Positions 1-10,219 of a stretch of 39,415 bases of DNA are shown in pieces. Made by a program: the position numbers and the translations under genes. Under the pieces are notes generated by a model that was not told the DNA's origin, did no database searches, and saw only the letters and a list, made by a program, of their open reading frames with translations. The stretch spans positions 1-39,415 of the forward strand of contig JBBCAV010000338.1 of the NCBI GenBank assembly GCA_051382305.1, written 5' to 3'. The DNA is from Bdellovibrionota bacterium FG-2 (GTDB taxonomy: Bacteria; Bdellovibrionota; UBA1018). Every line of letters starts with the position of its first letter. The first letter of the stretch is position 1.

Positions 1-93
1 TGGAGGACAGCTTTACTATGCTGAGAGGTGGAGGTCGCGTTCCATGGCTAACTACGCGCCAAAATTATGAAATATGAGTTCACCGAAGACATG

Positions 94-153
94 GCTCTGC
101 ATAATCAAGCGCTCCGCATAACATGGGTTATGCTGAGATCAGCATAACCCATG
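94..153. repeat. Cluster of four GCATAA motifs: 11-bp direct repeat, dif-like site and perfect 15-bp inverted repeat
   Basis: gctctgcataa (94-104) / gctccgcataa (111-121). catgggttatgctga (122-136) and tcagcataacccatg (139-153) are exact reverse complements with a 2-nt spacer. 111-138 reads GCTCCGCATAA-CATGGG-TTATGCTGAGA. Confidence 0.8.
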
Positions 154-1329
154 AAATCTGCTCAGATGCATTCTTGGCTGGGGAACAAGTGCTACGAGCT
201 TCTCCAAAAATTCTAAAGGAGAGAACCGCACAGCCGAGGTGCCGTCACTCCAGTCCTTCTTGAAACGATAAATCAGATCCCCATTGGAAGCCTCGGACAG
301 CCGCCCTTCAGCAATTGGCGGGCGTGCCACATACCGGCACAATTTCTCAAGGCGTTCTTTTTCATCCTTCTCAATGACGGTGTTTGCGTGAAGAGAGAAT
401 CCACCAATAGACGCACAACGCACGCCCTCTTTTAATGGAAGCTCTCCTTCAATTCCAAAGCTCCCCATTTTTCTAACCCGCTGGCCGGCGCGCTCCCCAA
501 GCGCGATCTTGTTTTTGACTGAAGCCCCCTGGCAAAGCTCTATAACTTCCGTAAATTCTTCTTGGTTGGAATCGCCCTCATTACTATGGGGATCTTTATC
601 AACGGGGTATCCCCTTTTCTTTAAAGCCCGCACCACGCGCGTTTGAATGGTCGCGAGTATCTGCTGTACCTCGGCGGTCGTTGGACCCCTAAGCTCGTGA
701 TAGACAACTTGCCCGTTTCCAAAAGGCTCATAATAGACGCCCTCAATCATCAATGTGTGAAAGTGGGGTGCAAGGTTCGCTGAGCCACCAAATAATTGCA
801 CAAGCGTGATCGAGCCAGAATCTCCTTTACGGACCCCCTCGCGCCTCGCGCGCTTACGCTGATAACCGGAAATGGCGCGGATATAGATCCCAAGCACCGT
901 AGATAAGAGATTACTATCGCGAGCCATCCAATACCTTAGAGGCATAGGAAATGAAATCACCCACTGCCGGACAGGTGCCTCTGGAAAAACCCAGTCCGTA
1001 TAAAACGCGGCTTGCTCACTCATGCGGCGGGCTCCACAAGAACTGCAAAAACCACGTTTTTTGCAGGAAAATGCTACTAATTTTTCATGTTTGCACCCGT
1101 CGCACTTTAGACGTACGAACCCATTGGCAAGCACCCCGCAGCCCATGAACGCCTGAAACTCGCGCTTGATATGAGAGGGCAGATACCGCCCTTCTTCCTC
1201 GCGGTCCCGAACAAAGGTGAGCCAATTTTTTTGAACGACCCGATAAAGCAATGCCTGCGTGGGATCGCGCGGACGATAAGAAGCGGCGGGAGACGAGCCC
1301 GCAGAAAAGGCGCTGGCATTGTGGGACAT
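139..1329 (-). pseudogene. IS91-family (HUH rolling-circle) transposase, apparently C-terminally truncated
   Basis: N-terminal Cys-rich zinc-binding region (CDGC...SCKKRGFCSSCG), HUH motif PHFH and catalytic Tyr in RYVARPP. The ORF stops immediately after the conserved RFHGL motif, inside the 122-153 palindrome, whereas family members normally continue. Confidence 0.8.
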
Positions 1330-1456: not shown

Positions 1457-2861
1457 CTAATCCCAGGTTTCTTTCTTCGGAGAAATAATTGCACCCTCAC
1501 CCTGAAGCGCCTGCCTCTTTGCGTATTCTTGAACAATGAAATCAATATCGAGGCAGGCTTCTCCGGCTTCCGATAAATAGCTTTTGCGAATAGCCTTCAA
1601 ACTATCCATGACAACGGCTGGCGAGGTGTCTTTGGGGTTTGGGTCAATAGCCATCTCAGCTCTGATAAGGCCCCAATTAGGGCGCACAACGCTTGAATTC
1701 ACGAACACTTCACCGCGTTTAAGACCCTTTAGTATATTTGGGTGAAGTACAAACTCCTCAACGTTTCGCCGGGACTTCATCCCCGTTTGTCGCTCTCCTG
1801 ACCAAAACCCCTCGTCCTTCACTTGTATCGTTTCCTTGATCGTCGTTTTGGTTCCAAGCATCCCCGCGTAATGTTCAGCATCCTCCGAAGTCTTAACCCC
1901 CGAAACGATCACCGTATTGGCGTTAGCCTCTATTCTGCTCTGAAAATCAGGGCTAATCTCCCTAAGATCCGCCCTTGATTGATGGGCCATCACAATACCG
2001 ATCCCCGCGCCTCGTGCGCGATCCATGAACTCAATAAATTCAGGCGTTGCGAAGCTCGCAAACTCATCAATGACAAGTGTCACCGGAACGACCGCGCTTT
2101 GATCTACCCGCGAATAATGCTCGCCCACAAACTGCATAAGATCCTGCAAGATCAGCTTTCCAAATACGGAGGCTGATTCCTTGAGTTTCAAACTATTCAT
2201 GAGCATGTAGGTGATTCGCCTTTCTTGAATCGCCTCTCTAAAATCAAAGCTCCCGCCCTCTGCATCATGGCTAATCAGCTCGCCTGCGGCCGAGTTAATG
2301 AGCTGATTCAAATTGGCGATCAGGCCCATAAACTTTGTGCGCTCGGTGGATTTATCCATCTGCGCCGCCATGATTTGAACCTCTTCTGAACTCCGGCACC
2401 CCACCCGAGTCATTTCCGCTGCAAACGCCCTGAGCTTTCTTGAGTCGTTGAGCAACTCGTAGATATGCCCCAGATGAAACCGCCTCTTCGACTTCTCACG
2501 ATACTCACAAAGGCCAGAAACCACCGTCATAAGCGCCACACTTGCCACGCTTCGATAAAAACTCTCACTCCACGTCATGGAGTTCATCAAGGCGCTATGA
2601 ATGTCTGAGCGATCCCCATTCTTAATGGGGTTATATGGAACCGATAAATCCCGGTTTGAGAGGCTTAAAAGCCGGATATCGCCCTCACGGCCATAGGTCT
2701 TTGCCGTACCGTAGAGCCAGGCCACGAGATCAAACTCCGCTTTGAAATCCAAGAAAATCACCGCGTGTCCACGCTCGATCCTGTTCTTCATTAAATTTTT
2801 AAGAATCGTCGTCTTCCCGCCGCCCGTAGGTGCGACGATTTCAACGTGATGGCTTAGGTGC
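1457..2861 (-). pseudogene. Type IV coupling protein (VirD4/TraD/TraG-like), 5' end missing
   Basis: Walker B TLVIDEF, RARGAGIGIVMAHQS and ANANTVI motifs. The frame continues upstream of ATG 2791 as HLSHHVEIVAPTGGGKTTILKNL (Walker A) and is then cut near 2861-2869, with no start codon or N-terminal membrane region. Confidence 0.85.
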
Positions 2862-3049
2862 TGTAGTTAGAGTTTAAGGCACTTGAAGCCCGGACAGTTT
2901 GACAGGAGAACCGGGTTGGTAAGGTTTCCTGGTTTTAGTACATTCACTTCAAGGTTCGGTAAGGTTCCTCTGGAAGTTTAGGAAAAAATGATGATTTTTT
3001 CTTCGCGGCCTACCCAGAACACTCACCACGTTGCCCTGAGTGCGACTTC

Positions 3050-4900
3050 TTAATCGTTGCCAATGGTGGACGTCATCCAAACATTTGGAGCGGGCGCAGA
3101 CATTCGAATAAAGTTTTCCCACTCAAAAAGTTTGCATAGCAGATTGTCTCGACGCTCCTTGGATACCTTTTTCGATTTAACTACGAACCCAGCAATGGCT
3201 TCTCGAAGCTGAGTGGCTCGCTCAGTGCTGCCTTTGGAAGCAACCAAAAAAGATTTTTTCAGATCGCGTAAGATCGGGATCGTGAACGCAGGGATGGGAG
3301 TGTTCATGAAGTCGGCGGCGAGTCGTGTACAAGTTGCTTCGGGATGACTTTTGAGTGACCCTGCAAGATCCTGCTCTCGAAGCTTGCCCATCGTATCCCA
3401 ATGGTGGGTGTAGACGGTTTCAAGCTCAGAATACAGCTGGGTCACTGTGTTTTGCTCCGCTAAATGACGTAAAATCCCACCAAAATAGGCGTGTCCATAG
3501 CCCTTTTCCGGGTGTTCTTTGCGTTTTTGCTCCCAGATTGCGGTGGCTCCCAAGATCATATTCGGAGTGAATCGTGAGTTTTGGAGCGCTTTATCAAATA
3601 CATCCCGGTGAGGAGGTGTGGTTTTTTCGGCGGCTTGAGCTATGGCAACTGCCTTCTCGGCAGACACGATGGGCTGGGCTTGCTCATTTTTGAATCGCTC
3701 GGCCATTGCCTTGAGGTTCTCTCGAATCGTGGCCTCTTCCTCGGGGGTGGCTTGCGTGGCTTCATCCATGACTTCCTTCGCACTTTTAAAAGACAAGGAT
3801 TTACGTGGACCGTGATTCCGCATTTGCGTGAAAACCTCTACGAAGGCTTGCGCGATGGAGCGCGACAGCTCCTCGGGCGTTGCACCAGTGACTTCAATTT
3901 TTCCTCCCACCCATTTCTCAAAAATGTTGAAGTTTCCCTCTACAATCCCATTACTTTTAGAGTTCCCAGGAAAAATTTTAATGATCTTTATGTTCAGCTC
4001 ATCGAGGAACGCCCTAATTGCCGGAAGATCCTCTGATAAACGGTTATCCAAGACGATCGCCAGGGGAGCAACCCCCAGCCAATTGCTCGATTCCTTGATT
4101 GCCATGAGCAAATTTTCCGTGTTTTCTCTGCGGTCGATTATTCCCCCAACAATTACGGTCGTCGCTCCATCAATCAGGCATTGCCAAACCCACTCAAAAA
4201 CCTCCCCGTTGATGATGACGATCATGCGCTTGCCGTCACTACCCCACACATGGTTGGGTTTAAATCGCAGGATCTTATCGAGCCCCTTATTTTTGAGGAA
4301 GATCCCACGCGGATTGACGAAGCCCAGACGACGAAGCCAATGAAGGCACTGGCGATAATTCATCCCAATACGCCCTAAAAAATCAGGGTTTTTTTCACAA
4401 AAACGTTTTACTGACTTCGCACCACGCCCACTTCTCAGATACTCATTGGCCAGTTCGACCACGAATTTTGGCAGCTCCTCATATTCTTTCTCGGGCTTCG
4501 CGCCTTCTGCGGCCACAAATTTGGGGAACTTTTTGAGCGTATCAAGTGGGATCTTCAAAATCTGACTCACACACTCGATCGTAAGACCGTAGTGAGATCT
4601 GCGATCTTCGACAATCGCCTTATAGGCCGGGTCAAATTGAATCCGCACCCCATCCTCTCGTGCGTCCGGGTGCTTCACCTGATAACGAAGTATCTCATTC
4701 TCGAATTGATATGTGCGAATCACCTGACACGAAGCCTGATTACAGGGCTTTTGAGGTGTATTTGGCATCCAGCTAAGACGCCTCTTTATCAGTTCTGCCG
4801 CCGCGTAAGCGGCACTTCGCCCAATGCCGAGGGTCGTACAGACGCTCTCCATGGAGCTTCCCGGAGGGAAGCGGTCATGAAGAGAACGAGTTGCAATCAA
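3050..4900 (-). CDS. Large DDE (rve/integrase core) transposase with N-terminal HTH-like region and long C-terminal extension; start uncertain
   Basis: WGSDGK (D1), VLDNR (D2) and SNGIVEG (E) with exact D-35-E spacing. N-terminal helix-turn-helix-like VCTTLGIGRSAAY. The frame is open upstream to 5011; alternative ATG at 4852. Confidence 0.8.
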   Translation of the reverse strand: MIATRSLHDRFPPGSSMESVCTTLGIGRSAAYAAAELIKRRLSWMPNTPQKPCNQASCQVIRTYQFENEILRYQVKHPDAREDGVRIQFDPAYKAIVEDRRSHYGLTIECVSQILKIPLDTLKKFPKFVAAEGAKPEKEYEELPKFVVELANEYLRSGRGAKSVKRFCEKNPDFLGRIGMNYRQCLHWLRRLGFVNPRGIFLKNKGLDKILRFKPNHVWGSDGKRMIVIINGEVFEWVWQCLIDGATTVIVGGIIDRRENTENLLMAIKESSNWLGVAPLAIVLDNRLSEDLPAIRAFLDELNIKIIKIFPGNSKSNGIVEGNFNIFEKWVGGKIEVTGATPEELSRSIAQAFVEVFTQMRNHGPRKSLSFKSAKEVMDEATQATPEEEATIRENLKAMAERFKNEQAQPIVSAEKAVAIAQAAEKTTPPHRDVFDKALQNSRFTPNMILGATAIWEQKRKEHPEKGYGHAYFGGILRHLAEQNTVTQLYSELETVYTHHWDTMGKLREQDLAGSLKSHPEATCTRLAADFMNTPIPAFTIPILRDLKKSFLVASKGSTERATQLREAIAGFVVKSKKVSKERRDNLLCKLFEWENFIRMSAPAPNVWMTSTIGND

Positions 4901-4985
4901 TAATCCCGCTTGCCAACTGGCCGGAGCCTCTTCTATCTTGAAGATTGTGGGTGCCTTTCTTGCCTGCGCGCGGCTACTCGGACGC

Positions 4986-5210
4986 TTACTCTTTCTGTCT
5001 GCTGCTTGCTGCTAATGCCTTCAGTTGATCCGCCACTGTCGGCGTGGATTCGCTCGGAGGGGGAGGCGCTTTACAGCCAAGCGTTGTGCAAAGGTTCTCC
5101 AAATCCCCATCTTTCTGGTAATCCTTGATTGCAGGCTCAAACATCGCAAGAATCGCCGCGTGCAGTGCTTTATTGATTTCGTCTCTATTTCCATCTATTT
5201 TCAGGATCAC
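4986..5210 (-). CDS. 74-aa hypothetical protein between the two transposases
   Basis: GTG start with a strong SD (GGAGGGG) upstream; co-oriented with both transposases and fills the gap between them. Confidence 0.7.
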   Translation of the reverse strand: MILKIDGNRDEINKALHAAILAMFEPAIKDYQKDGDLENLCTTLGCKAPPPPSESTPTVADQLKALAASSRQKE

Positions 5211-5219
5211 GTTTACGTC

Positions 5220-5261
5220 CCCTCCGCTTTGTGTGGCGACAGTTCACCACACAAAGGAGGG
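5220..5261 (-). promoter_or_regulatory. RNA hairpin that sequesters the SD of the 74-aa ORF
   Basis: mRNA CCCUCC-UUUGUGUGGUGA-ACUG-UCGCCACACAAA-GC-GGAGGG gives an 18-bp stem with one G-U pair and a 2-nt bulge. It starts 4 nt after the upstream TGA (5266-5268). Confidence 0.7.
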
Positions 5262-5265
5262 CATT

Positions 5266-6408
5266 TCAAGCCGCGCGATTGATTCGCAAAAGTGCCACTT
5301 TCATAACCTCTGTCCACGCATCATTCTCCACCTTCTCTTTTGAGGCAGGGATCTCCTTGCTCTGGATGGCCGTGTTCCATCCGTAAAGAAATCGATCCGC
5401 AGGAACCGCCCCCTTTGGAAGCCCCATGTGCGTTCGCTCGAAGTTATAAAACCGGAGCCATTCCACGATAGCGGAACTTGCTTCTTCGAGGCTCGCGTAG
5501 AGCTTTACATCGAGGACTTCTTTTTCGATCTGCTTATTGACGTTCTCGATTTTGCCGTTAGAACGTGGGGTTTTGGCCTTAATTTGATCAACTCCGTACT
5601 CCTCGGATATCAGTTTCTGAAAACGATTGATCCCATTCCAACTGTAAAAAGCACTTCCCGCATCCGTTATCAAGGATTGCATTTTTCCGTAGCGGTCCAC
5701 GCATTCCTCGAACGCTTCTATGACTGACTTCATGTTTTCTGAGTCCGTCATCCGGTGGCCGCAAAGAAACCGGCTGAAGTCGTCTTGCAATAAAAGTAGG
5801 TAGACCTTCTGTTTGTTGATGTAAAAATGTTTAAAATCCATGTGGACGAGTTCCAAGGGTCTTACGGCCTCATAACGATTGATCTCAATCTCCTTTATCG
5901 TGGTTTTTGGCGGCGTATAGCCGTTCTCCTCTAAGATTTTTCGCACAGTAGCGACGTTAATCTTGATCCCTGCACGATGAAGTTGATTGCGAATCTGCGC
6001 GGGCCCCAGGCCAGGACGTGAGCGCCACTGATGCAAAACGGCCTTCCACTGCGGGTGATGCCCCTTGTGATAATCGGAGGGGGGCACCACAACAGATCCG
6101 CTTTGCGACTGCACCGCTGATTCGGGAGCGGCAATTGGCTCATGCTCCGTTGATTTTGATGACTGAGATTCACGGCGCAACCAACGATTTACGGTTTCGT
6201 GGCAGATACCGTACTTCTCTCGAAGCTCGTCTAATTTTTTCCCCTGGGCCATCTCAGTGAGAATCGCGCGTTTCTCTGCTGGACCGTACCTGCGACCGCG
6301 ATTTATGGGTTTCTTTTCAGACTCCTTGGCCGTCTTCTTGGCAGCGATTGCTTCCATCACGGCATTAATCAGATCTTCATCACTACGGGACGTCGCATTT
6401 TTAGACAT
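5266..6408 (-). CDS. IS481/IS3-like single-ORF DDE transposase (HTH + HTH + rve), about 380 aa
   Basis: HTH RRYGPAEKRAIL...YGICHETVNRW, second HTH GPAQIRNQL...VRKIL, then VHMDFK, ITDAGS, PRSNGKIE and YNFERTHMGL. Start moved to ATG 6408, which follows SD GAGGAGG. Confidence 0.88.
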   Translation of the reverse strand: MSKNATSRSDEDLINAVMEAIAAKKTAKESEKKPINRGRRYGPAEKRAILTEMAQGKKLDELREKYGICHETVNRWLRRESQSSKSTEHEPIAAPESAVQSQSGSVVVPPSDYHKGHHPQWKAVLHQWRSRPGLGPAQIRNQLHRAGIKINVATVRKILEENGYTPPKTTIKEIEINRYEAVRPLELVHMDFKHFYINKQKVYLLLLQDDFSRFLCGHRMTDSENMKSVIEAFEECVDRYGKMQSLITDAGSAFYSWNGINRFQKLISEEYGVDQIKAKTPRSNGKIENVNKQIEKEVLDVKLYASLEEASSAIVEWLRFYNFERTHMGLPKGAVPADRFLYGWNTAIQSKEIPASKEKVENDAWTEVMKVALLRINRAA

Positions 6409-6600
6409 GGGCTTCCTCCTCGAAAAGGAAACCTCGGCCAACTGCGGCAAATCGTCCGGTCAGATCCGCCCTGCTTGGTGCCTTACGCCGCTAACCAGAG
6501 CAGCTAAGGCTGTGGAAAAATGAACTAAAGCGCAGCATATCCCATCCTGACACCCGACTGGGCGACTCTCGAACCTAGAGTTAATTGGCGGTATTGTCAG

Positions 6601-6634: not shown

Positions 6635-8212
6635 ATGGATTGGAAGGGTAAAAATAATCGCGCTATCGGCATCCTGCGCGTAAGCAGCAATCGGCAGAAA
6701 GACAACACGTCCCATGACGTTCAAAGGCATGAGGTTCAAGAGTATTGCCAGTTCAACGGCCTTGAACTGACCAAGGTTTTTGAAATTGTTGAATCCGCAA
6801 AGGACTTCGAGGACCGGAAAAAATATCGGAGCGCGATGCTATTTGCCGCCGAGAAAGGTATCCAGCACGTTTTGTTTTATATGTTCGACCGTGAGGCCCG
6901 CAATCTCACCGACAATGAAGAAAATGAAAAGCTCGTCAGGCTCGGTCAAATCGTTCTGCATTATGTGCGTGAGCGAAAAATTCTGCACAAAGAAAGTCCC
7001 GATTCTGACTTTCTGATGCGTGATTTTCATGCGATCCAAAACAAAAATTACAGCCGGGCCTTGAGCGTTAAGGTCAATGACTCAATGAAGAGAAAGGCCG
7101 AAGAAGGTTGGTATCCAAGTAATAGGCCGCCGCTAGGCTATATCTGTAAAGCGTTACTCAACGAAGAGGGCAGAGAACGGAGACGCGGAAAAATCATTGT
7201 CCCAGATCCAAACATGCAAAAACGAGAACAGGTCATTCGAGAGTTTGAGTTGCGAGCCACCGGGCTTTCATTTGAAGAAATCCGTAAACGAGTTATTGCA
7301 GACGGACTTATCCGACCAGAGAAAATCAAAAACTATCATGCTACCGGCATCGAAGGGCGGATTAAGAACCCTTTTTATCGGGGTCAGTTCCTTTGGCAGG
7401 GACAAGTTCATAAAGGAAAACACGAAATAATTATCCCGAACGATATTATCAGAAGGGTGGATGCGACACTCTACAAGAAGAATTTTTCTCGTAGGCCCGA
7501 GGGGGGGCAAGCCGTCCTGGCGGGAGGCTGGCTCATTTGCGGCGACCCAGCTTGTGGCTGCAACATTGTTCATGAACTTAAAACCAAACGCCCCAAAACA
7601 GGTGCCCCTAAACTTTTCAACTACCTCCACTGCACGAACGGAAAAAAAATTCACCCAAATCTGAAAGGAATGCACGTGACCGAGGAAAAAATCTGGAACC
7701 AGCTCGAAGGTGCGTTGGATGCCATTTCCATTTCAAAGGAGTTTGCTGCTGAAATCAGTGAGGCCATGAATAAGGCGCAGCGCAAGACCCAGGACGCAAC
7801 CAAACGCGAAATGGCTCAATATAGAGATGCCCTTGTTGCTTTAGAGAGCGAGGAAGATCAACTGTATGGGGATTTAAAGAAAGGGGTGATTGCCGAACTT
7901 GCCTATCACCGACTTTTAAAACGGGTCCGTGATCAGCGACTTCATTTCAGCAATCTATTGGAGGGTGCGAGTCTCGCCATTTCAGACGCGGGGATGGAAA
8001 CCGTAAAATCTATTCTCGAACTCGCCACGTCAGCGAAATCACTATGGATAGATCGCTCGCCCCAAGAGCGGCGGGACTTCCTTGATGACATACTCTCGAA
8101 CCCGGTCTTGGATGGGACAACTGTGCGATATGAAATAAAAAAACCATTCCGAATAATCTCCGAAATGGCGAAATCTAATGTATGGCGGACCCAAGAGGGT
8201 TCGAACCTCTGA
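6635..8212 (+). CDS. Large serine recombinase (integrase)
   Basis: Catalytic ILRVSSNRQ, DREARN, recombinase domain (PPLGY, NPFYRG, GKHEIII), zinc ribbon (ICGDPACG...YLHC) and coiled coil. The last 30 nt overlap the tRNA 3' end. Confidence 0.93.
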   Translation: MDWKGKNNRAIGILRVSSNRQKDNTSHDVQRHEVQEYCQFNGLELTKVFEIVESAKDFEDRKKYRSAMLFAAEKGIQHVLFYMFDREARNLTDNEENEKLVRLGQIVLHYVRERKILHKESPDSDFLMRDFHAIQNKNYSRALSVKVNDSMKRKAEEGWYPSNRPPLGYICKALLNEEGRERRRGKIIVPDPNMQKREQVIREFELRATGLSFEEIRKRVIADGLIRPEKIKNYHATGIEGRIKNPFYRGQFLWQGQVHKGKHEIIIPNDIIRRVDATLYKKNFSRRPEGGQAVLAGGWLICGDPACGCNIVHELKTKRPKTGAPKLFNYLHCTNGKKIHPNLKGMHVTEEKIWNQLEGALDAISISKEFAAEISEAMNKAQRKTQDATKREMAQYRDALVALESEEDQLYGDLKKGVIAELAYHRLLKRVRDQRLHFSNLLEGASLAISDAGMETVKSILELATSAKSLWIDRSPQERRDFLDDILSNPVLDGTTVRYEIKKPFRIISEMAKSNVWRTQEGSNL

Positions 8213-8260
8213 CCTCCACATCCGTAGTGTGGCGCTCTAATCCAACTGAGCTATGGGTCC
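8183..8260 (-). tRNA. tRNA-Arg (anticodon ACG)
   Basis: Reverse complement GGACCCATAGCTCAGTTGGATTAGAGCGCCACACTACGGATGTGGAGGTCAGAGGTTCGAACCCTCTTGGGTCCGCCA shows acceptor stem, D-arm, anticodon arm CCACA-CTACGGA-TGTGG, GTTCGAA T-loop and encoded CCA. Confidence 0.97.
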
Positions 8261-8388: not shown

Positions 8389-8901
8389 ATGCTTAAACCC
8401 TCTGACTGGATCCTTGAACCTCATTCCTGCCCTGGTTTCAAAAAATACGAGCTCGTCTCACATGTCGAAAAGCTCCCGACGATTCATCACACCGAATACA
8501 TTCACATCGAGACGCCCAAACGCTACGGACTACTGAACATCACGGAACACATTGAGCACATTTTGGATCGCTCAAAAGTAATAGATGGGTTGTGCTTTGT
8601 GAGTGTCATGCACATCACAGCGGGCGTTTATGTGAACGATGCCGAGAGCGGACTACTCAATGACATTGCGAAGTGGCTTGAAAACCTCGCACCTTACGGC
8701 CAACCGTATGCGCACCATCAAACCGGTGAGGACAACGGAGACGCGCATCTCAAGAGTTATCTGACGAATCATTCGCTCACGGCGCCTGTTACCCATGGGC
8801 ACCTAGATTTCGGAACCTGGCAGCAAATATTCTATGCAGAATTTGATGGCTGCCGAAACAAGCGCGTGCTCGTGAAAATCACGGGTCTGGCTAAGAACTA
8901 G
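8389..8901 (+). CDS. yjbQ: YjbQ/UPF0047 family protein
   Basis: HITAGVYVND, GEDNGDAHLKS and GTWQQIFYAEFDG motifs. Start reassigned to ATG 8389 because the upstream part of the ORF-track call is tRNA antisense. Confidence 0.88.
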   Translation: MLKPSDWILEPHSCPGFKKYELVSHVEKLPTIHHTEYIHIETPKRYGLLNITEHIEHILDRSKVIDGLCFVSVMHITAGVYVNDAESGLLNDIAKWLENLAPYGQPYAHHQTGEDNGDAHLKSYLTNHSLTAPVTHGHLDFGTWQQIFYAEFDGCRNKRVLVKITGLAKN

Positions 8902-10219
8902 TCTCATCAAGATCAGAATAATCGGTCTCCTGAGAATATTTCGGATCCAAATCCACAGAGCGACCGTCCACACTGCCCTCTAAACCCGCGTAGAGCGCCA
9001 ACACTTCAGAATCCGCGCGAATCGATGCAGGCGTCCACCCCGTAATAAACAGCCCTTTTCCAGAGCGAACGCGCGAGAGCGCCGTATACGCATGCCCTGG
9101 CTCCCAGAGGCCCCGTAAATCCATCACGACGCGATCCAAGGTACATCCCTGACTCTTATGAATCGTTGTGGCCCAAGCAAGATTCAGGGGGAAGTTGGTC
9201 GCGCTCGCGATCTCAACTCCTTCGGCGTTTACGTGTTTGAACGTCGCAGGAACAATTTCTTCATCATCGCCCTCGGAAAGCTCCACAATAATTGCTTCAT
9301 CGTGAATTTTCCTAACCGTTGCGAGGCTTCCATTCACCCAACGACCGGAGGGGTCATTTTGCCGAATCATGACCAGGGCGCCCTCTTTAAGCTGCAACAC
9401 CTCGGGGATCGGCGCGTTGCGCTTTAAGGCTTCGATTCCCGCCTTCTCGCCACTGTATTGTGTTTCGAGCGAAAGAACTTTGCCGCGAACGTTTTCTAAT
9501 TTCTTTAAATTAAAATTCTCAACCGTTGCTCGATGCGGAAAGAGGTGAGTACAGCCCTCCTTTTCACCGACACTAATTCTCCGTGCGTCCAAATAATCGG
9601 CCACTTCGGGGGTCGAACGCCCGTGCCTTACCTCATTGAGAATCGCTAAAAACTCAGCCTCGCGTGACCGGACAATTTCGCGTAAGTAAGCGGGCTTGAA
9701 CCCCGAGTCCTTCCACACATTGGAGCGAAAAGCCCAATCACGGTTCCCCTTGGCATCAGGAACCGGCGGCAGCTGCGCGAAATCACCCACCACATGAACC
9801 TTAAGCCCCCCCCAAGGTCTCGGATCTTTACGGCCCAAGCGCGCAACTTTTTCGGCGGCCTCAAGATCAGTGCCGCGAAGCATAGAGATTTCATCGATGA
9901 TGACTTCTTCGGCTTTTCGAATTCGTTTAACGACGGGTTTGCGCGCAAGTGCCGCCTCAACCGCTTTTTCGGGTCCTCCTTCGAGAATTCCCAATCCAAA
10001 AAAACTATGAAACGTTCGTCCGCCAATCAAGACCGCAGCCGCCCCCGTGGAAGCCAAAATCACGGGGTTTTTTGAGAAATTGTTAATATAATGCCCAATT
10101 AGATGAGATTTTCCAGTGCCCGCAAGCCCCGTCAAAAAAACACAAACGTTTGCCTTAAGAAGCTCAAGGGCGTCTTCTTGGCAGGAACTGAGTTTTTTGA
10201 CCCGAGATTTGGCACACAT
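8891..10219 (-). CDS. Pif1-like SF1B DNA helicase
   Basis: TGLAGTGKS, ASTGAAA, TFHSFFG, IIDEISM, GDFAQLPPV, WATTIHKSQG and YTALSRV motifs. Confidence 0.9.
   Translation of the reverse strand: MCAKSRVKKLSSCQEDALELLKANVCVFLTGLAGTGKSHLIGHYINNFSKNPVILASTGAAAVLIGGRTFHSFFGLGILEGGPEKAVEAALARKPVVKRIRKAEEVIIDEISMLRGTDLEAAEKVARLGRKDPRPWGGLKVHVVGDFAQLPPVPDAKGNRDWAFRSNVWKDSGFKPAYLREIVRSREAEFLAILNEVRHGRSTPEVADYLDARRISVGEKEGCTHLFPHRATVENFNLKKLENVRGKVLSLETQYSGEKAGIEALKRNAPIPEVLQLKEGALVMIRQNDPSGRWVNGSLATVRKIHDEAIIVELSEGDDEEIVPATFKHVNAEGVEIASATNFPLNLAWATTIHKSQGCTLDRVVMDLRGLWEPGHAYTALSRVRSGKGLFITGWTPASIRADSEVLALYAGLEGSVDGRSVDLDPKYSQETDYSDLDETSS

Follow-up and report, generated by a model that had tools for sequence, protein, structure and literature searches.

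The window analysed here, i.e., the whole 39,415-nucleotide stretch of contig JBBCAV010000338.1 from Bdellovibrionota bacterium FG-2, contains at positions 2859–6502 an insertion sequence (IS) of 3644 bp that appears to encode two paralogous DDE enzymes. All of its genes reside on the minus strand, organized as three co-oriented open reading frames (ORFs), A, S and B, with intergenic gaps of 55 and 85 bp, an arrangement that the ORF coordinates confirm for an initial annotation made from the letters alone (Table 1). The ORF list gives no further sense-orientation ORF of at least 50 amino acids (aa) between the two ends, and neither Pfam nor NCBIfam detects an ATPase or nuclease domain in any of the three products, in agreement with the earlier remark that the two transposases come with no ATPase. 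Within the element, no Rfam family was matched, and a promoter/terminator scan returned sites no more numerous than in shuffled sequence. Relatives with both ends mapped measure 3392–3695 bp (n = 5), and together these elements form an apparently undescribed family of about 3.4–3.7 kb that is scattered through environmental bacteria.

Table 1. Features of the element and its immediate flanks, in window coordinates.
Feature	Positions	Strand	Basis
Right terminal inverted repeat (IRR), TGCTGTAGTTAGAGTTTAAGGCAC read inward	2859–2882	+	Local alignment to IRL, 19/25 positions matching
Right end region with conserved subterminal blocks (CCGGACAG..., ...GGTTTCCTGGTT)	2859–2940	+	End alignment of 8 elements
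Gene B, predicted 616-aa divergent rve-type DDE enzyme	3050–4900	-	ORF, family alignment, AlphaFold2 model, profile comparison
ORF S, 74 aa, accessory and lineage-specific	4986–5210	-	No family; homologue in locus L032 only
306-bp stretch with ORF S, skipped in a close relative's contig	4962–5267	.	Joint 4961 to 5268, run X1
Gene A, IS481-like DDE transposase, 380 aa from ATG 6408	5266–6408	-	Pfam/NCBIfam, alignment; longest ORF 5266–6450
Left terminal inverted repeat (IRL), TGCTCTGGTTAGCGGCGTAAGGCAC read inward	6478–6502	-	Five same-genome contigs diverge past 6502
Left end region with the same subterminal blocks, reaching the ribosome-binding site and start of A	6425–6502	-	End alignment
Target-site duplication copy GCTAAG, recombinase-side insertion	6503–6508	+	Run X2 contig junction
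Flank CTTAGG on the traG' side, mismatching 6503–6508	2853–2858	+	Junction belonging to a different copy, or path of the assembly through the repeat

The left tip of the element is fixed at 6502, where five other contigs of the window's genome (a bin of 433 contigs, 85% complete) match the window up to this position and then diverge. Read inward, IRL aligns with plus-strand positions 2859–2882 (19/25 matches, one 1-nt gap), revealing a pair of imperfect inverted repeats, and these two observations together delimit the element. The ends of relatives were located by alignment to those of the window, an automatic inverted-repeat search having been uninformative. Across 8 elements, which contributed 7 left and 8 right ends to the resulting alignment, a terminal block TGC..T.G.TAGC....AAGGCAC is conserved and is followed by two subterminal blocks, CCGGAC.. 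and CCGAGG.TTCC, such that all three blocks fall within about 80 bp at both ends. The spacing between TAGC and AAGG is one base shorter in 8/8 right ends than in 7/7 left ends, a left/right asymmetry that is small but conserved. The dissimilarity of the ends that the initial annotation had emphasized was therefore overstated, since 19 of 25 positions match and the conserved difference amounts to this single nucleotide of spacing.

The two transposase genes lie within a single pair of ends. The family terminus pattern matches the 39-kb window once per end (6478–6502, minus strand; 2859–2882, plus strand) and nowhere else, and no conserved interior terminus after A was found in the six elements scanned, whose best interior matches are scattered at unrelated positions. 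Thus, no termini separate A from B, in line with what the initial annotation had seen by eye. A composite transposon, or two adjacent ISs, was considered as a candidate structure and is contradicted, as neither transposase gene has termini of its own. More generally, A and B could be two independent ISs lying side by side or nested, their pairing being accidental or composite, and an 18-nt stretch at 5358–5375 that looks like an inverted left terminus (78% complementary) might be taken as a sign of such an arrangement. However, this stretch lies inside the coding region of A and interior matches occur at unrelated places in six elements, whereas the terminus pattern is present at 2859 and 6502 only; given also the invariable adjacency and the co-divergence of A and B described below, two independent insertions are extremely improbable.

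Gene A encodes a recognizable transposase. Its product matches the Pfam families rve and rve_3, and its best NCBIfam model is IS481 (NF033577; E = 3.4e-45), although the score of 154.7 bits stays below the 224-bit equivalog cut-off of that model. The protein displays a helix-turn-helix (HTH)–HTH–DDE layout, and its catalytic triad, D205, D263 and E302 (D-38-E; numbering of the 394-aa ORF that starts at TTG 6450), is invariant in 39 sequences. A GGAGGA ribosome-binding site, conserved in the left ends of relatives, precedes ATG 6408, which is likely the actual start and gives a protein of 380 aa. The description of A in the initial annotation as an IS481/IS3-like enzyme of about 380 aa with an intact D-38-E triad is therefore substantiated.

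The protein encoded by gene B is far harder to recognize. At E ≤ 0.01, the window's B matches no Pfam family, PF00665 (rve) included, and NCBIfam yields marginal matches only, to the IS3 and IS481 models (IS481 at 17.7 bits). Nevertheless, its triad, D222, D285 and E321 (D-35-E), is invariant in 41 family members that are 24–71% identical to the window's B, among which 12 match Pfam rve (best E = 1.4e-7) and 8 match HTH_Tnp_1. The D, D and E residues are likewise invariant in an alignment of 21 distant B-like proteins, a set that overlaps the ten distant members checked against Pfam and NCBIfam. When the B profile was compared with the A profile by hhalign, 250 columns from the HTH region through the catalytic core could be aligned, the two triads falling into register (probability 91.7%, E = 8e-7). 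In the AlphaFold2 (AF2) model of B (mean predicted local distance difference test score, pLDDT, 75.6), the core runs strand-strand-strand-helix-strand-helix-strand-helix, D285 falling where a strand ends and E321 lying in a helix. Foldseek's top-scoring matches to this model are without exception DDE enzymes (IstA, TnsB, retroviral integrases and Mos1), with weak statistics (E = 7e-4 at best, low template-modelling scores) because the model comprises several domains; a search of the B sequence against solved structures returned chance-level matches only. Collectively, the profiles, triad and modelled fold indicate that B is most probably a DDE enzyme, very divergent, and a distant paralogue of A.

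B shares the layout of A and is extended at both termini, by a further HTH region at the N-terminus and by an all-helical domain of about 250 aa at the C-terminus. In the AF2 model, residues 370–605 are entirely helical, and VIA-align, applied to the C-terminal half in the whole model and in a separate model of residues 365–616 (pLDDT 78.9), returned generic helical-bundle matches only (Z ≤ 8.6). The original description of a 616-aa protein with an intact D-35-E triad and additional terminal regions stands, the triad being invariant in 41 sequences.

A protein search with B gave 85 matches of 30–100% identity, labelled as Bdellovibrionota, Planctomycetota and Bacteroidetes bins, mostly on contigs of about 3–5 kb, the remainder being shorter or, in three cases, much longer. 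A search with A gave 161 matches, many of them on contigs equal in length to those of B matches; relatives of the element assemble as stand-alone contigs of about 3.4–3.7 kb. We collected 30 related loci, 10 from genomes and 20 from metagenomes, and tblastn was used to locate A, B and S in them. In 27 of the 30, which are all the loci with upstream sequence, A immediately precedes B on the same strand, at 40–62% identity; of the three uninformative loci, L029 is a fragment of 33 aa, and the contigs of L048 and L049 start inside B. Two of the loci (L026 and L045) are the same stretch, and two others (L033 and L034) represent one element in two contexts. Among 22 loci measured, the distance from the A stop to the first B start is 8–164 bp in 20; in L024 there is a 43-nt overlap at the first candidate start and in L032 the distance is 371 bp. 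The frame offset between A and B varies (0, 1 or 2) among measured loci.

Sequence divergence points in the same direction. Pairwise identities of A and of B are correlated across 18 elements (Spearman 0.63, with 0 of 2000 permutations as high), the mean identity being 62% for A and 48% for B. The ratio of nonsynonymous to synonymous substitution rates (dN/dS), evaluated on 13 pairs with B identities of 72–89% and given where computable, as the synonymous rate is saturated in the remaining pairs, is 0.04–0.16 for A (10 pairs) and 0.07–0.18 for B (12 pairs). By these values, both genes are under purifying selection and A and B co-diverge. No B-less version of this A clade was seen, though short contigs could hide one. 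The initial annotation had allowed that homologues of the two enzymes might usually occur apart; instead, A adjoins B in every locus with upstream sequence, and its view of the genes as one unit rather than two independent insertions is supported by the single terminus pair, the 27/27 adjacency, the co-divergence and the purifying selection.

The same data bear on whether each enzyme is a transposase. A might be the only transposase, B being a conserved passenger in a non-transposase role, such as a regulator or inhibitor, a target-immunity determinant or a host-interaction factor built on a DDE scaffold. In line with this, A is the more conserved protein (62% versus 48% mean identity) and is recognizably IS481-like, B carries a large extra helical domain of no assigned role, and the target preference and 6-bp duplication of the element are IS481-like (PMC10045372). 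However, the triad of B is invariant in 41 close and 21 distant members, which argues against this explanation, since a purely regulatory protein need not keep a triad; furthermore, B has a dN/dS as low as that of A, every locus with upstream sequence has A beside B, and a B-less form of the A clade is not seen within the limits of short contigs. Such a passenger role of B, the main rival to the two-enzyme view, is therefore unlikely in our judgment, though worth keeping in mind. Conversely, B could be the main transposase, or the integrase of the element, with A as an accessory for end recognition or regulation. B-like proteins do constitute a large family of their own (393 representatives), and the extended ends of about 80 bp exceed the needs of a plain IS481 end. 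Yet A keeps an invariant triad and is under the strongest constraint, and the termini and target duplication resemble those of IS481-type elements, making this assignment very unlikely.

The B family extends well beyond these loci. A profile of B searched against 1.84 billion representative clusters matched 393 at E ≤ 1e-3, 274 at E ≤ 1e-10 and 92 at E ≤ 1e-30, and a language-model atlas contains 25 unnamed clusters, mostly from Thermodesulfobacteriota and Myxococcota. Ten distant members of the family, which sit on contigs of 2.7–5.3 kb, match no Pfam or NCBIfam family above cut-off. Of 401 genomes searched within the phylum of the window, 3 carry the element, counting that of the window itself, and a scan for distant B-like genes centred on genome G402 recovered the same lineage and the same elements (3/401); this patchy distribution fits horizontal spread. 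No match to the element was found among 72,556 plasmid records or in viral contigs.

ORF S, lying between A and B, behaves differently from both. It belongs to no Pfam or NCBIfam family, the protein database holds no homologue besides S itself, and tblastn finds a homologue in only 1 of the 30 related loci (L032; 57% identity over 69 residues). In the window and in L032, the distance from the A stop to the first B start is about 370 bp, compared with 8–164 bp in relatives. Moreover, a contig from run X1, belonging to a close relative (about 90–96% DNA identity over eight pieces), joins 4961 directly to 5268 and thereby skips 306 bases containing S; run X1, which contains only about 8% of the sampled words, was used solely for this contig and not to infer habitat. 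Since a single locus has a homologue and the relative's contig skips the region, S is an accessory insert, a dispensable passenger of one sublineage rather than a core component. Of the three-gene unit initially proposed, the A–B pair is thus conserved (27/27 informative loci), whereas the 74-aa ORF is not.

Junction sequences show that the element has moved. In the window's genome, at least five different left junctions are present, and in all six left junctions examined TA occupies positions 3–4 of the adjoining hexamer; in related contigs the same holds for 14 of 15 flanks. In run X2, which contains the window and is possibly its own source, a 3602-bp repeat contig spans exactly 2859–6460 at a word depth of 85, while the flank on the side of a serine recombinase gene has a depth of 11.1 and that on the side of a truncated traG/virD4-type gene (traG') a depth of 60.3. 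A contig of this run reads ...GTAAGCTAA plus G2858 into IRR, so that GCTAAG abuts the right end; GCTAAG is also found at window positions 6503–6508. With the same hexamer at both of its ends, the recombinase-side copy is flanked by a perfect target duplication of 6 bp. Another right junction, on a 472-bp contig of depth 7.75, reads ...AACG followed by TAG and one differing letter, and is compatible with the CGTAGA flank of contig C119. No right-end junction contig was found in the genome bin, from which both right-junction flanks of run X2 are absent, and a further genome (G401), with a single assembled copy, adds no evidence of duplication.

Partial and decayed copies were also encountered. 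The outermost 72 bp of the left end (window 6431–6502) occur alone at C28:1257–1328, joined to unrelated sequence, as a truncated or solo end, and this piece has a word depth of 91.4 in run X2 compared with 85 for the element body. The first 64 bases of contig C121 are identical to window 3439–3502, inside B, and are joined to unrelated genes, indicating a second, truncated or rearranged copy of B. In loci L028 (identical to G376:C32) and L037, A and/or B are frameshifted or interrupted, such that decayed copies coexist with intact ones.

Taken together, we favor the view, with a probability of about 0.6, that the element is one autonomous 3644-bp IS of an apparently undescribed family whose two paralogous DDE enzymes both function in transposition; the family apparently derives from, or is sister to, IS481-type elements. 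Imperfect terminal inverted repeats of about 25 bp and two subterminal motifs per end enclose the two-gene A–B operon, and the whole unit transposes, making a 6-bp target duplication at central-TA sites (xxTAxx). In this model, A and B would both take part, most likely as a mixed transpososome or in successive steps; the heteromeric transposase with one enzyme per end and the catalytic plus targeting/regulatory pair proposed in the initial annotation are likewise candidate arrangements. One enzyme might form an excised or copied-out intermediate that the other integrates; alternatively, the two might differ in what they bind, namely the terminal repeat in one case and the subterminal motifs in the other, and the multi-motif, extended ends together with their left/right difference do leave room for two DNA-binding specificities. 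Copy-out/paste-in transposition via a circular intermediate is established for the IS3 family and assumed for IS481, and this pathway has two distinct synaptic steps that could be split between two specialized paralogues.

A more specific version of this model, which we put forward tentatively and at somewhat less than even odds, is that A and B form an obligate mixed transpososome with an end-specific or step-specific division of labor, in which a second DDE enzyme would replace the ATPase or nuclease partner on which all multi-protein DDE transposons described so far depend. An end-specific division could mean terminal versus subterminal sites, or left versus right end; a step-specific one could mean generating the excised or copied-out intermediate versus integrating it. 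Structure prediction of a complex of A (residues 15–394) and B (residues 1–606), using the alignment of each protein, gave a score of 0.00, which is evidence neither way. Overall, we see a substantial chance that the element represents a new mode of DDE transposition.

Several points weigh against the two-enzyme interpretation. An interaction between A and B and a catalytic contribution of B to transposition are inferences rather than direct observations. The window's own B lacks a Pfam rve match at any reported threshold, 12 of 41 relatives having one. The linkage of A and B was established over the 30 related loci, and the more distant B-like proteins are known by sequence rather than by neighborhood. 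As to mobility, the perfect duplication was read from a single contig, whose run may be the very source of the window, and the window contig itself carries no matching duplication (CTTAGG on one side, GCTAAG on the other), with flank depths that differ more than fivefold (60.3 versus 11.1). Given these unequal depths and unmatched hexamers, the window contig may follow a chimeric path across the element, or the traG' flank may be common to several copies, in which case a larger unit might be repeated in this genome. In five related contigs, the flanks share the central TA and form no perfect duplication either, and we assume that these contigs may be assembly chimeras. Finally, the full-text literature search, with ISfinder and TnCentral outside its reach, returned no IS with two rve/DDE enzymes.

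That last point bears directly on novelty, as the element could be real and yet already catalogued, either as an ISfinder entry or as part of an emerging group. ISfinder and TnCentral lay outside the search, and the source annotations label relatives only generically, i.e., as 'transposase InsO family protein' or 'DDE-type integrase/transposase/recombinase'. On the other hand, the NCBIfam IS models score A below cut-off and B marginally, no two-rve or two-DDE IS appeared in the literature searched, and the 72,556 plasmid records gave no match. No curated IS model accepts the unit, which agrees with its being called a candidate new element in the initial annotation, and prior description therefore seems rather unlikely to us.

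On the right-end side of the window copy, at 1457–2858 on the minus strand, lies the traG/virD4-type coupling-protein gene (TraG-D_C and TrwB_AAD_bind domains), whose N-terminal side is cut by the right end of the element: its frame, including the Walker A codons at 2809–2838, runs straight into IRR, and the N-terminal part is absent beyond the element. The contig carrying this traG' flank in run X2 is 1.6 kb long. At 92–1464 (gene at 139–1329, minus strand) is an IS91-family transposase unit (Y2_Tnp and Zn_Tnp_IS91), which is repeated in the genome on contig C358 (92.6% identical over 1339 bp) and partially on C238. Window positions 1–127 also recur without mismatch at the ends of two other contigs. 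On the left-end side, within 6635–8260, a gene for a large serine recombinase (Resolvase and Recombinase domains) adjoins a tRNA-Arg(ACG) gene at 8183–8260; this region looks like the edge of an integrated island within which the element is inserted. A PIF1-like/AAA_30 helicase gene (8891–10219, minus strand) sits beside the tRNA gene and a UPF0047 gene, the true start of which is probably further downstream than listed, because the listed start at 8182 overlaps the tRNA gene.

If our interpretation holds, keeping two distinct, catalytically intact DDE enzymes under selection between a single pair of ends would amount to a new way of solving transposition, and the element could serve as a natural model of how chemical steps, or the two ends, are shared between two DDE active sites. 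If the mixed transpososome exists, the approximately 390 B-like clusters would mark a whole overlooked class of two-DDE elements. B-like proteins would also add to genome annotation a transposase family for which there is no Pfam or NCBIfam model. Being compact (3.4–3.7 kb), with defined ends and a target duplication, the element is directly testable in a laboratory host.

Among known systems, the element most resembles IS481, which supplies the best curated match of A and shares its HTH-HTH-DDE layout; terminal inverted repeats and a 6-bp target duplication (GCTAAG) add to the likeness. Members of IS481 proper have a single transposase ORF, a length of about 1–1.3 kb and TGT tips, and IS481 itself targets NCTAGN, of which the central-TA target of the present element (xxTAxx) is reminiscent. 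According to PMC10045372, the majority of IS481 members make 6-bp duplications, TGT tips are given for the eukaryotic IS481EU relatives, and the autonomous IS481EU families all encode a single protein. The element differs from IS481 in that A scores only 154.7 bits, under the 224-bit model cut-off, its length is 3.4–3.7 kb with a second, obligatorily linked DDE gene, its tips start with TGC rather than TGT, and its ends bear conserved subterminal motifs out to about 80 bp.

With IS3, the element shares two consecutive co-oriented ORFs within one inverted-repeat pair and an rve core, and both B and A weakly or partially match the IS3 model. In IS3, a small OrfA and OrfB in overlapping frames are fused by a -1 programmed frameshift, whereas the upstream gene of the present element encodes a complete DDE enzyme rather than a small HTH protein. 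An IS3-type frameshift fusion of A and B was considered and is excluded by the spacers of 8–164 bp in 20 of 22 loci and by the frame offsets, whose variability leaves no conserved frameshift fusion possible. A looser analogy is provided by Tn554 and the 'recombinase in trio' elements, which carry several paralogous tyrosine recombinases in one element: there too, paralogous recombinases of one superfamily are kept together in a mobile element, suggesting joint action, although the chemistry is that of tyrosine recombinases rather than DDE enzymes and no sequence relationship exists.

Finally, the implied participation of more than one element-encoded protein in transposition recalls Tn7, Mu, IS21, Tn552 and Tn5053, and this likeness extends to ends with several conserved motifs and to IstA and TnsB being among the best structural matches of B. 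In these elements, one DDE enzyme works with an AAA+ ATPase (TnsA, TnsB and TnsC in Tn7; MuA and MuB in Mu; IstA and IstB in IS21; likewise Tn552 and Tn5053), and Tn7 adds a restriction-enzyme-like nuclease. To our knowledge, the bacterial DDE elements described so far rely on a transposase acting alone or on one transposase with a non-DDE helper, i.e., an ATPase, a nuclease or a small DNA-binding protein, whereas the present element has no ATPase or nuclease domain, and the partner of its IS481-like transposase appears to be a second DDE enzyme.

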